From the NCBI RefSeq assembly GCF_003334815.1, contig NZ_QOWO01000014.1: DNA of 64,000 nt, one strand, 5' to 3'. Origin of the DNA: Escherichia coli (GTDB taxonomy: Bacteria; Pseudomonadota; Gammaproteobacteria; Enterobacterales; Enterobacteriaceae). Of the stretch, positions 20,843-50,140 are shown one piece after another. Numbering within the stretch: position 1 is the first letter of the stretch; the number at the start of each line of letters is the position of its first letter. Both the position numbers and the translations under genes were made by a program. Under the pieces are notes generated by a model. The model worked only from the letters and a program-made list of their open reading frames with translations, made no database searches and was not told the origin of the DNA.

Positions 20843-21943
20843 TTATCGCTCGTCGCGACGACCACCCACCGCAGCCCAGATGCGGCGGACGTGCACCGTC
20901 ACTTCTTCGCGATCGTGATACAACTGCCGCGCCTGAATCTGAGCATTTATGCCATGTTCATCAAGCTGTGCCTGAATATACGCCAGATTGTGTGACACTT
21001 CTTCGTAGCGTTTTTTCATCGGCAGTTTGAGGTTGAAAATGGTTTCACGGCACCAGCCATTAACCAGCCACTGCGCCATCAATGCCGCAACTTTCGCCGG
21101 TTTTTCAACCATATCGCATACCATCCAGGAGATATTGCTGCGCGTCGGACGGAATTTGAAACCGTCTTCCCGCAGCCACGTCACCTGTCCGGTATCCATC
21201 AGACTTTGCGCCATCGGGCCGTTGTCGACGGAATAAACCCACATGTTGCGCTTCACCAGTTGGTAGGTCCAGCCGCCAGGGCAAGCGCCTAAATCCACCG
21301 CCCACATCCCGTTCGCCAGGCGTTCATCCCACTCATCCGCAGGAATAAACACATGAAATGCCTCTTCCAGTTTGAGCGTGGAACGACTCGGCGCATCTGC
21401 CGGAAATTTCAGGCGCGGAATGCCCATATAGAACGGCGAATTATTGTTGCTGTATGAGTAACCGGTATAGCAGCAGCCTGGTGCAATAAAGAATACATGC
21501 ACAACCGGACGCTTCGGCGTTTCATAGTTCGCCAGCACCCCGGCATCGCGCAAGGCAGCGCGTAGCGGAACAGTAAATTTACGGCAGAATTTCAGTAACT
21601 CTTTGCTTTCGTTGGTATCGGCAACTTCAACACGCAGTTCACCGCCCTTCTCTACTACGCCCTGTAACATGCCGACAATGGGGGTAATACGATCTTCTGG
21701 CGGCAAATGCTGCAGGAGTTCCCCCACCACAAACCACTGGCGGGCAAAAATTAATGAACTGAACGGCAGCTCACGGATTAACTTATCGCCATCATCAGGT
21801 TGATAACATTCATAAATGACATAACCCGCATTCTCTTTCACGCGGGCAAAACCGAAAATTTCCCGCTGGCCGGCTTTATCGGTAATTTCTGCGGCGCACT
21901 CTTTTTCAAAGCCCGGACGGCACAGCAATACAACCTTATTCAT
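20843..21943 (-). CDS. rlmM: 23S rRNA 2'-O-ribose C2498 methyltransferase
   Basis: 366-aa [28 protein letters not shown]...; THUMP-like N-terminus plus methyltransferase C-terminus. Confidence 0.88.
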
Positions 21944-49456: not shown

Positions 49457-49559
49457 CGGACTACCTCAAAATAAAGCTTTATATACGAATGATTGTTTCA
49501 TACTCCAGGAAGACGGTAAACCACTCTCTGCAGGGCATTACACACTAATAACAATTGAA

Positions 49560-49960
49560 TAACTCACAGTTATGTGCAGAGTTATAAACAGAGGAAGGGG
49601 TGGATAGCCGTTTTTATTCACCTTTTCTGTGGATAGAGTTGTGAAGAACTACGGAATTACTACGGGAAAACCCGGAGCATTCTGAATAAGCCCGATATAG
49701 ACATTTTAAAATATTCATTATCAGTCAATGCATTACATGTAATTTTAGTAATGAAAAAGAGTAATTCGTGACCCAGGTCACACCTCTCATTTACGGGTTG
49801 GCGAAAGATCAACCAATGCCGTATTTATCCACAGAATGTGCCACTAAGTTAAGCACTGAACCACTAAAAACTGGAGTTTCGTCGCACGTCAAGGCTGTAA
49901 ATGGAAACAGTAGTGGAGGTTTTTCACAGTTATCCCAGCTTTCTGTGGATAACATGGTGT
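49560..49960. other. DnaA-box cluster consistent with DnaA-reactivating sequence DARS2 (non-coding chromosomal element); boundaries approximate
   Basis: Three DnaA-box-like 9-mers clustered at 49599..49636 (GGTGGATAG, TTATTCACC, TGTGGATAG) and two perfect TTATCCACA boxes in inverted orientation at 49825..49833 and 49944..49952; a 685-bp intergenic gap at the locus where DARS2 is reported. Confidence 0.55.
49809..49955 (-). CDS. ygdT: 48-codon hypothetical ORF inside the DnaA-box region; possibly non-coding
   Basis: ATG...TGA ORF translating MLSTESWDNCEKPPLLFPFTALTCDETPVFSGSVLNLVAHSVDKYGIG; both ends coincide with the two perfect DnaA boxes; the ygdT name is a guess from recalled K-12 gene order. 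Confidence 0.3.
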   Translation of the reverse strand: MLSTESWDNCEKPPLLFPFTALTCDETPVFSGSVLNLVAHSVDKYGIG

Positions 49961-50140
49961 AAGATCCTGTTTATTTTCAGTGACCAGATTTGGAAAACCC
50001 GTTGCAGTGTTGCGCAACTCGATTACCGGCAACCTAAAAAGCAATATAAATCAGAGAATTGAACAACGTATGTGGAAAAAGTTACACTGCGAATATTCGG
50101 CACATAATTGCTGTTTGTTTTTTAATCAAGGTATCATGAC

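Follow-up and report, generated by a model that had tools for sequence, protein, structure and literature searches.

The rppH-mutH intergenic region

The DNA considered here (the window) is a stretch of 64,000 nucleotides of the E. coli chromosome. Around the region that concerns us, translation and the RefSeq annotation identify the flanking open reading frames as those of PtsP and RppH, read from the minus strand, and of MutH and YgdQ, read from the plus strand. The gap that separates rppH from mutH spans 684 bp (49457-50140). A first-pass annotation of the sequence had rightly drawn attention to a long gap, while counting it as 685 bp. It is present in 5,425 of 5,426 complete E. coli genomes, and 683 of its 684 bases are those of MG1655, the sole difference being a T at 50069 where K-12 has a C. 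A single feature is annotated in it by RefSeq, ygdT (b4610), an open reading frame of 48 codons on the minus strand (49809-49955). For comparison we collected rppH neighbourhoods from 80 species and aligned the gap of 36 Enterobacterales with that of the window, giving 37 sequences; the length of the gap is near-constant among them, between 676 and 712 bp.

Identity of the DnaA box cluster

The DnaA boxes clustered in the rppH-mutH gap make up DARS2 (DnaA-reactivating sequence 2) of E. coli, an identification that we hold to be nearly certain. This is an already known and well-studied element, reportedly the subject of Fujimitsu 2009 in E. coli K-12, and meeting the box cluster again amounts to the rediscovery of a textbook element of replication control. 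The identification comes from exact matching of the window to the oligonucleotides published by Kasho et al. (2014; PMC4245941, Table S1). About 30 published DARS2 primers and oligonucleotides match exactly, at mutually consistent positions. Among them are the primers used for deletion of the core, those used for substitution of boxes IV, V and VI and of IBS1-2, and the oligonucleotides for FBS1, FBS2-3, FBS4-5 and FBS6. The stretch left between the two primers of each substitution pair coincides base for base with a predicted site. Fragment primers MutH-4 and MutH-2 bound positions 49591-50045, which is the published, experimentally defined full-length DARS2 of 455 bp. Frimodt-Moller et al. 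(2015; PMC4585315) used deletion primers that delimit 49614-49648, the same segment as the deltaCore deletion of Kasho. Since the published primers and oligonucleotides match exactly and place 49591-50045, the region is DARS2 itself.

The genomic position agrees with this: the element sits in the rppH (ygdP)-mutH intergenic region, as DARS2 does. Over its 455 bp it is 100% identical to MG1655 (the T at 50069 falls outside), and comparison with the DARS2 of E. coli K-12 (PMC4245941, PMC8682772) shows the same locus and the same sequence, with boxes I-VI, IBS1-2 and FBS1-6 at the bases predicted from the primers and no difference within the element. Because the sequence is identical to an experimentally defined one, its identity as DARS2 is effectively irrefutable. 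The first-pass annotation had named DARS2 correctly, and its wording, 'DARS2-like', was too cautious for what is the element itself; the alignment to the published core and to the IHF and Fis sites that it proposed is exact at all mapped sites. Chance clustering of the boxes is ruled out as well: the 455 bp contain seven matches to TTATNCACA with no more than one mismatch, where 0.37 would be expected from the remainder of the window (Poisson P ~1e-7).

The DnaA boxes

Three 9-mers resembling DnaA boxes, GGTGGATAG, TTATTCACC and TGTGGATAG, occupy 49599-49636 in alternating orientation, just as had been noticed at first pass, and two of them are core boxes I and II. The leftmost one does not belong to the core. 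Placed at about 49599-49608, and reading CTATCCACC on the minus strand with two mismatches to TTATCCACA, it was rejected as a core box for lying outside the deltaCore deletion and for being unconserved: E. coli and E. albertii alone keep it, and it has already changed in a divergent Escherichia genome. The same listing had overlooked the conserved core box III. The deltaCore deletion, bounded by primers MutH-14 and MutH-15, covers 49614-49648 and removes three boxes: box I (TTATTCACC, plus strand, 49614-49622), with one mismatch to TTATNCACA; box II (CTATCCACA, minus strand, 49628-49636), which forms a head-to-head pair with box I; and box III (TTCTTCACA, minus strand, 49640-49648), which has the orientation of box II and lies 3 bp away from it. 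Read along the plus strand, the core has the order 9-5-9-3-9, that is TTATTCACC(+)-TTTTC-TGTGGATAG(-)-AGT-TGTGAAGAA(-). It fits the published description, in which box I is inverted relative to boxes II and III and 5 bp separate the head-to-head pair I and II (PMC6868365), and the 'double DnaA box' gTTCTTCACAactCTATCCACAg of another study (PMC11317965) corresponds to boxes II and III taken together. All three are near-invariant in the 37 Enterobacterales.

The other boxes are spread over the rest of the element. Box IV (TTATTCAGA, minus strand, 49681-49689) has one mismatch and is exactly the 9 nt replaced by primers Ksh-30/Ksh-31. Boxes V and VI are perfect copies of TTATCCACA, which occurs exactly twice in the window, at 49825-49833 on the plus strand (box V, exactly the 9 nt replaced by Ksh-32/Ksh-33) and at 49944-49952 on the minus strand (box VI, exactly the 9 nt replaced by Ksh-34/Ksh-35). 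Both copies are part of a perfect inverted repeat of 12 nt (49825-49836 and 49941-49952), and on this point the initial reading holds entirely. Box V is invariant in the 37 Enterobacterales and is found in most Vibrionaceae.

Box VI has company on both sides. On its left, separated by 5 bp, TTATCCCAG (49930-49938, plus strand) has three mismatches to the box consensus and, despite this weak match, is invariant in Enterobacterales as GTTATCC(C/A)A; box VI and this opposite-facing partner repeat the geometry of core boxes I and II. On its right, 2 bp beyond, a degenerate box, CTTACACCA (49955-49963, minus strand), makes up with it a 'double DnaA box', and the sequence tCTTACACCAtgTTATCCACAg, which is box VI together with the degenerate box, is listed for a DARS2 peak of DnaA occupancy (PMC11317965). 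The degenerate box falls in an invariant block, GGTGTAAGATCCTGTT. Box VI, with TTATCCCAG on one side and the degenerate box on the other, is thus a copy of the layout of the core.

IHF and Fis sites

Just two near-matches to the IHF consensus, TAANNNNTTGATW, exist in DARS2, each with one mismatch, and they are the IHF sites IBS1 (49707-49719) and IBS2 (49723-49735), 3 bp apart, as published (PMC4245941). The subIBS1-2 primers replace 49714-49728, which covers the inner arms of both. The Fis site FBS1 (GAGTAATTCGTGACC, 49759-49773), non-essential, is a perfect match to GNNYANNNNNTRNNC; its 15 nt are exactly those replaced by Ksh-3/Ksh-4, and it lies within oligonucleotide FIS-1U. By contrast, FBS2-3 (49800-49824, with a GATC at 49807) are essential for activation of DARS2. 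Primers MutH-24/MutH-25 delete the crucial 21-mer 49804-49824, Ksh-20/Ksh-21 replace 49800-49817, and oligonucleotide F23U corresponds to 49792-49829; the motif AAAGATC of FBS2-3 is near-invariant from Enterobacterales through Vibrionaceae. The rightmost Fis site, FBS6 (50001-50015), also non-essential, is the 15 nt replaced by Ksh-9/Ksh-10 and lies within FIS-4U (49993-50023). A minimal DARS2, the deltaRight construct (49591-49823), stimulates initiation from a plasmid, and boxes IV-VI and the right half of the element are dispensable in plasmid assays (PMC4245941).

How the element works

A sequence identical to this one promotes the release of ADP from ADP-DnaA in biochemical experiments, in a manner that depends on both IHF and Fis (PMC4245941), and the steps that follow have all been the matter of published experiments on this exact sequence (PMC4245941, PMC8682772, PMC11724364). 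In window coordinates, ADP-DnaA assembles on the core (boxes I-III, 49614-49648), where boxes I and II carry two DnaA molecules head to head. IHF, at IBS1-2 (49707-49735), bends the DNA, so that Fis bound at FBS2-3 (about 49800-49824) meets the DnaA dimer. ADP leaves, and apo-DnaA takes up ATP, yielding ATP-DnaA competent for initiation. When ATP-DnaA is high, it nucleates on box V and oligomerizes over the flanking low-affinity sites, evicting Fis in a negative feedback; box V has been described as the nucleation site of these Fis-evicting oligomers (PMC8682772).

Occupancy in vivo is documented by DnaA ChIP-seq, which gives three strong peaks in DARS2, of 78x, 199x and 213x (PMC11317965), and so bears out the binding anticipated by the first-pass annotation. 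Read in NC_000913.3 numbering, these peaks fall at window positions 49603, 49785 and 49980. A footnote of the study refers to NC_000913.2, a reading that we rejected, as it would put the DARS2 peaks in ygdQ/ygdR; NC_000913.3 was adopted because it is the only numbering that places them in the rppH-mutH gap. Box VI lies about 30 bp to the left of the strongest DARS2 peak and carries the 'double box' of that peak; it is a strong DnaA site in vivo (PMC11317965).

Conservation of the right half

Across the 37 Enterobacterales, next to no change is seen in the core, FBS2-3, box V or box VI. Mean identity to E. coli reaches 0.73-0.91 over 49877-49996, against 0.33-0.51 over 49677-49796. Conservation of DARS2 therefore peaks in its right half, the very half that is dispensable in plasmid assays. 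The spacing between boxes V and VI is also maintained: it is 119 bp in 29 of the 30 Enterobacterales tested, and 118-121 bp, mostly 120, in Vibrionaceae. Taken with the boxes on either side of box VI and with the LexA-like site described below, this suggests that the right half may be a regulatory module for DnaA and LexA, its fixed spacing kept under selection.

Conservation over 49800-49997 might instead reflect a structured RNA, such as a small RNA or a long mutH leader, rather than DNA to which proteins bind. RNA-seq fragments from both strands speak for it, as does a terminator-like hairpin on the minus strand (49782-49767). Yet the region of this hairpin is poorly conserved, Rfam returns no match even at E <= 1, and RNAalifold, run on 30 species for either strand, finds as its main helix only the invariant inverted repeat of boxes V and VI, with covariation of about zero; its other helices are short, near-invariant and located around two GATC blocks. 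Conserved blocks are, moreover, known or plausible protein sites, spaced by variable DNA of fixed length. Lacking Rfam matches and covariation on either strand, a conserved RNA was rejected, and we regard it as very improbable.

The ygdT open reading frame

That ygdT may be an annotation artefact of a DNA-level element had been suspected from its position between the two perfect boxes, where it was said to begin and end exactly. Its ATG (49953-49955) does abut box VI, while its stop codon (49809-49811) lies 13 nt past box V, in the 21-mer of the Fis sites. Window position 49955, where the frame starts, corresponds to 2,969,476 of NC_000913.3, minus strand. The suspicion itself is supported by comparative evidence. 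Only one of the 37 aligned sequences has indels in the 147 nt under ygdT, but the frame is interrupted by internal stops in 24 of 34 Enterobacterales other than Escherichia, and only 15 of these 34 have a start codon (ATG, GTG or TTG) at the corresponding position. Diversity at the three codon positions is flat, 0.31/0.32/0.27, against 0.06/0.03/0.40 for rppH used as a control in the same genomes, and no third-position bias was seen in ygdT across the aligned species. Between E. coli and Citrobacter, one codon change is synonymous and 15 are nonsynonymous; between E. coli and Kluyvera the counts are 0 and 21. Set against each other, conservation at the nucleotide and at the codon level thus reveals conserved DNA blocks and no coding signature beyond Escherichia. 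In K. pneumoniae the locus tags of rppH and mutH are consecutive, and therefore no gene is annotated between them.

The peptide stretches that do appear conserved, LSTE.WDN, FTALT and SVDK, are what results from translating, respectively, box VI and its neighbour, the block GTCAAGGCTGTAAAT, which is that of the LexA-like site, and box V. Considering these features of the sequence, we infer that the open reading frame is a by-product of conserved DNA, its 'residues' being those of box VI with its partner, of the LexA-like block and of box V in translation. Homologues of YgdT in databases are unnamed predictions of 36-76 amino acids from the same locus, with frameshifted, read-through and indel variants among the Escherichia-like ones; Pfam has no domain on them and NCBIfam no YgdT model. 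In the literature searched there is no report of the protein, matches to 'YgdT' being misspellings of YdgT or the polymerase motif 'YGDTDS'.

A genuine young gene, specific to Escherichia, coding for a small protein and overlapping DARS2, would account for some of what is seen, and it would be expressed from a minus-strand transcript. One directional RNA-seq study assembled such a transcript, at about 49768-49984, in all seven conditions; its 5' end is given as 49984 or 50037, and its 3' end coincides with the weak terminator-like hairpin mentioned above (49782-49767). The frame is unbroken in E. coli, E. albertii and a divergent Escherichia, the three genomes of the genus that were compared, AGGA, akin to a Shine-Dalgarno sequence, is found 8 nt 5' of the ATG, and PGAP annotates the gene in E. 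coli genomes. Against this, the coding signature is absent outside the genus and, between two Escherichia lineages, four codon changes are nonsynonymous and one is synonymous. Disrupted variants, the absence of any family or domain, the silence of the literature searched and the coincidence of each conserved peptide with a DNA motif all point the same way. We therefore think a young gene improbable. The AGGA belongs to an invariant DNA block, TAAGATCCTGTT, and both it and the transcript may be incidental. We conclude that the region is transcribed, with an open reading frame that appears to be under no selection at the protein level, and that ygdT is most likely not a functional protein gene. 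This matters in practice: annotation pipelines carry ygdT through thousands of E. coli genomes without a sign of protein-level selection, and deleting or tagging it means mutating sites of DARS2, namely the Fis-site 21-mer, box V and box VI.

A LexA box-like palindrome between boxes V and VI

The interval that separates the two perfect boxes contains a palindrome of the type CTG-N10-CAG, GGCTGTAAATGGAAACAGTA (49893-49912), that resembles the LexA boxes of the SOS response. Measured from start to start, it follows box V by 68 bp and precedes box VI by 51 bp, and its distance to the ATG of mutH is 228 nt. We scored it with a heterology-index matrix built from 15 E. coli LexA boxes, each verified in MG1655. 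Its index is 11.06, rank 2 of the 63,981 20-mers of the window, inside the leave-one-out range of the 15 verified boxes (2.4-15.6, median 7.5) but toward its weak end. The score alone is not significant, because the window has another 20-mer that does no worse. What weight the E. coli site has comes only from its conservation and from a gel-shift experiment with its orthologue.

As to conservation, the CTG and CAG half-sites are invariant in the 37 Enterobacterales, and the rppH-mutH gap of Vibrionaceae has its best LexA-like 20-mer at the same offset. The Photobacterium versions are near-canonical, with half-sites kept, a variable spacer and indices of 5.5-9.6 (TACTGTATAAATACTCAGTT, for example, has 5.5), while many Vibrio species have the left half-site only. 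As to experiment, LexA shifts a V. parahaemolyticus mutH probe in EMSA (Sanchez-Alberola 2012; PMC3323433), and this probe contains the orthologous LexA-like site. In Salmonella, mutH is 3.6-fold up with nalidixic acid and a putative SOS box has been placed 228 bp from its ATG (PMC8072944), the same distance as found here. A search for a strong sigma-70 promoter across the LexA-like box gave none on either strand; the minus-strand TTGACG (49892-49887) has no credible -10 element to go with it.

The Vibrionaceae and Salmonella sites occupy a position homologous to that of the E. coli palindrome, which, with a heterology index of 11.1, is weaker than the Photobacterium versions at 5.5-8. Neither of the two studies puts its mutH LexA or SOS site inside DARS2, and in the literature searched we found no mention of LexA tied to DARS2 as a locus. 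A LexA-type site would reside, unconnected with DARS2 in that literature, in the most conserved half of the element; if true, this is a possible route by which DNA damage could reach the recharging of the initiator.

What the right half may be for

Two readings of the conserved right half have to be weighed. According to one, the perfect boxes and their surroundings are mainly an upstream regulatory region of mutH, with DnaA and LexA acting as transcription factors, as at uvrB by DARS1. The position of the LexA-like box, conserved from Enterobacterales to Vibrionaceae, fits well with this, as do the binding of LexA to the V. parahaemolyticus probe, the response of Salmonella mutH to nalidixic acid, the fact that DARS2 activity on plasmids does without the right half, and the presence of DARS1, too, upstream of a LexA box, that of uvrB, about 300 bp off. 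It is less easy to reconcile with the location of the mutH promoter: the transcript has its main 5' end near 50126, behind a promoter-like site at 50081-50108, and the LexA-like box is some 200 bp upstream, too far for simple occlusion. The role of box V in the feedback of DARS2 is already demonstrated, and an index of 11.1 marks the E. coli LexA-like site as weak beside known boxes, whose median is 7.5. We take regulation of mutH to be a real possibility, somewhat short of an even chance as the main role of the right half; it is not exclusive of a role in the reactivation of DnaA.

The other reading is bolder, and we offer it tentatively, as rather unlikely in its full form. The right half would be an ancient composite module, made of box V, the LexA box and box VI with its core-like partner, its geometry fixed from Enterobacterales to Vibrionaceae; LexA, set between convergent DnaA sites of high affinity, would link the SOS response either to the recharging of DnaA or to a DnaA-dependent control of mutH, and ygdT would be the shadow of this arrangement.

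DARS2 among related elements

DARS1 is located in the bioD-uvrB intergenic region, upstream of uvrB, and its core has the same layout as that of DARS2: TTATCCACT-ATTCC-TGTGGATAA-CCA-TGTGTATTA in the former, TTATTCACC-TTTTC-TGTGGATAG-AGT-TGTGAAGAA in the latter. In both, box I is inverted relative to boxes II and III, and the spacers are of 5 bp and 3 bp. Both elements are upstream of a DNA-repair gene, and both have a LexA or LexA-like box within a few hundred bp of the core, at about 300 bp for DARS1 (the uvrB LexA box) and at about 245 bp, within the element, for DARS2. Unlike DARS2, DARS1 works without IHF and Fis, and it is devoid of the IBS/FBS region and of boxes IV-VI. With datA and oriC, DARS2 shares a cluster of DnaA boxes combined with an IHF site involved in DNA looping, and ChIP-seq occupancy by DnaA is comparable (213-218x; PMC11317965). 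The outcome differs: datA leads to ATP hydrolysis and oriC to unwinding, whereas DARS2 leads to the release of ADP and, for this, additionally needs Fis.

Conservation and spacing of the element

The rppH-mutH gap (49457-50140) keeps a near-constant length in Enterobacterales, 676-712 bp in the rppH neighbourhoods fetched from other species (L002-L051). The distance between the two perfect DnaA boxes of DARS2, box V (49825-49833, plus strand) and box VI (49944-49952, minus strand), is 119 bp in 29 of 30 Enterobacterales species, and 118-121 bp, mostly 120, in Vibrionaceae. The most conserved part of DARS2 is the half that plasmid assays reported to be dispensable. Box VI itself belongs to a second core-like set of boxes (49930-49963), which reads TTATCCCAG (plus), 5 bp, TGTGGATAA (minus), 2 bp, TGGTGTAAG (minus). 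This set is invariant in Enterobacterales and is not present as such in Vibrionaceae. Of the DnaA ChIP-seq peaks published for the DARS2 locus, the strongest is close to this set (PMC11317965); Table 1 of that study is labelled NC_000913.2, yet its coordinates fit NC_000913.3 only.

Strongly conserved blocks also appear outside published DARS2, left of its boundary, at 49491-49525 and 49563-49590. They comprise TGATTGTTTC and ACGGTAAACCACT, close to 49482, where the 5′ end of rppH has been reported, and a conserved box-like TTATAAACA at 49582-49590. These blocks may represent the rppH promoter or an additional DnaA site. On the other side, the sole difference of the gap with respect to MG1655 (50069, T in the window, C in K-12) falls in the stretch that separates DARS2 from the promoter-like site of mutH, 2 bp from TTTTCCACA, a DnaA box of consensus class on the minus strand (50071-50079).

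mutH is not adjacent to rppH in Photorhabdus, Providencia, Arsenophonus and Morganella (L037, L045, L046, L050, L053, L055, L057, L060, L061). No DARS2 motif was found within 3 kb upstream of rppH in the six of these loci that were scanned (L037, L045, L046, L053, L060, L061); DARS2, if it exists there, must be located elsewhere.

Transcripts across the element

In one study, directional RNA-seq assembled a discrete minus-strand transcript over ygdT, the annotated 48-codon ORF within DARS2, at about 49768-49984, with 5′ ends reported from 49918 to 50037. A terminator-like hairpin (49782-49767, minus strand), which overlaps the Fis site FBS1, is located right at the 3′ end of this transcript. 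Plus-strand fragments are listed as well (49585-49712 and 49719-49894). As for the name, the 'YgdT' cited in papers as an H-NS/Hha-type protein is YdgT (Cnu).

A LexA-like palindrome between boxes V and VI

With a matrix built from 15 E. coli LexA boxes, the top score of the window (10.9) is that of TGCTGTATGAGTAACCGGTA (21448-21467), where CGG replaces CAG in the right half-site. Between boxes V and VI sits a palindrome resembling the LexA (SOS) box, GGCTGTAAATGGAAACAGTA (49893-49912), and our literature search found no connection between it and DARS2. Both its half-sites are invariant in the 37 aligned Enterobacterales. In Vibrionaceae the corresponding site is found at the same offset, and this orthologue was bound by LexA in EMSA, using a mutH probe from V. 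parahaemolyticus (PMC3323433).
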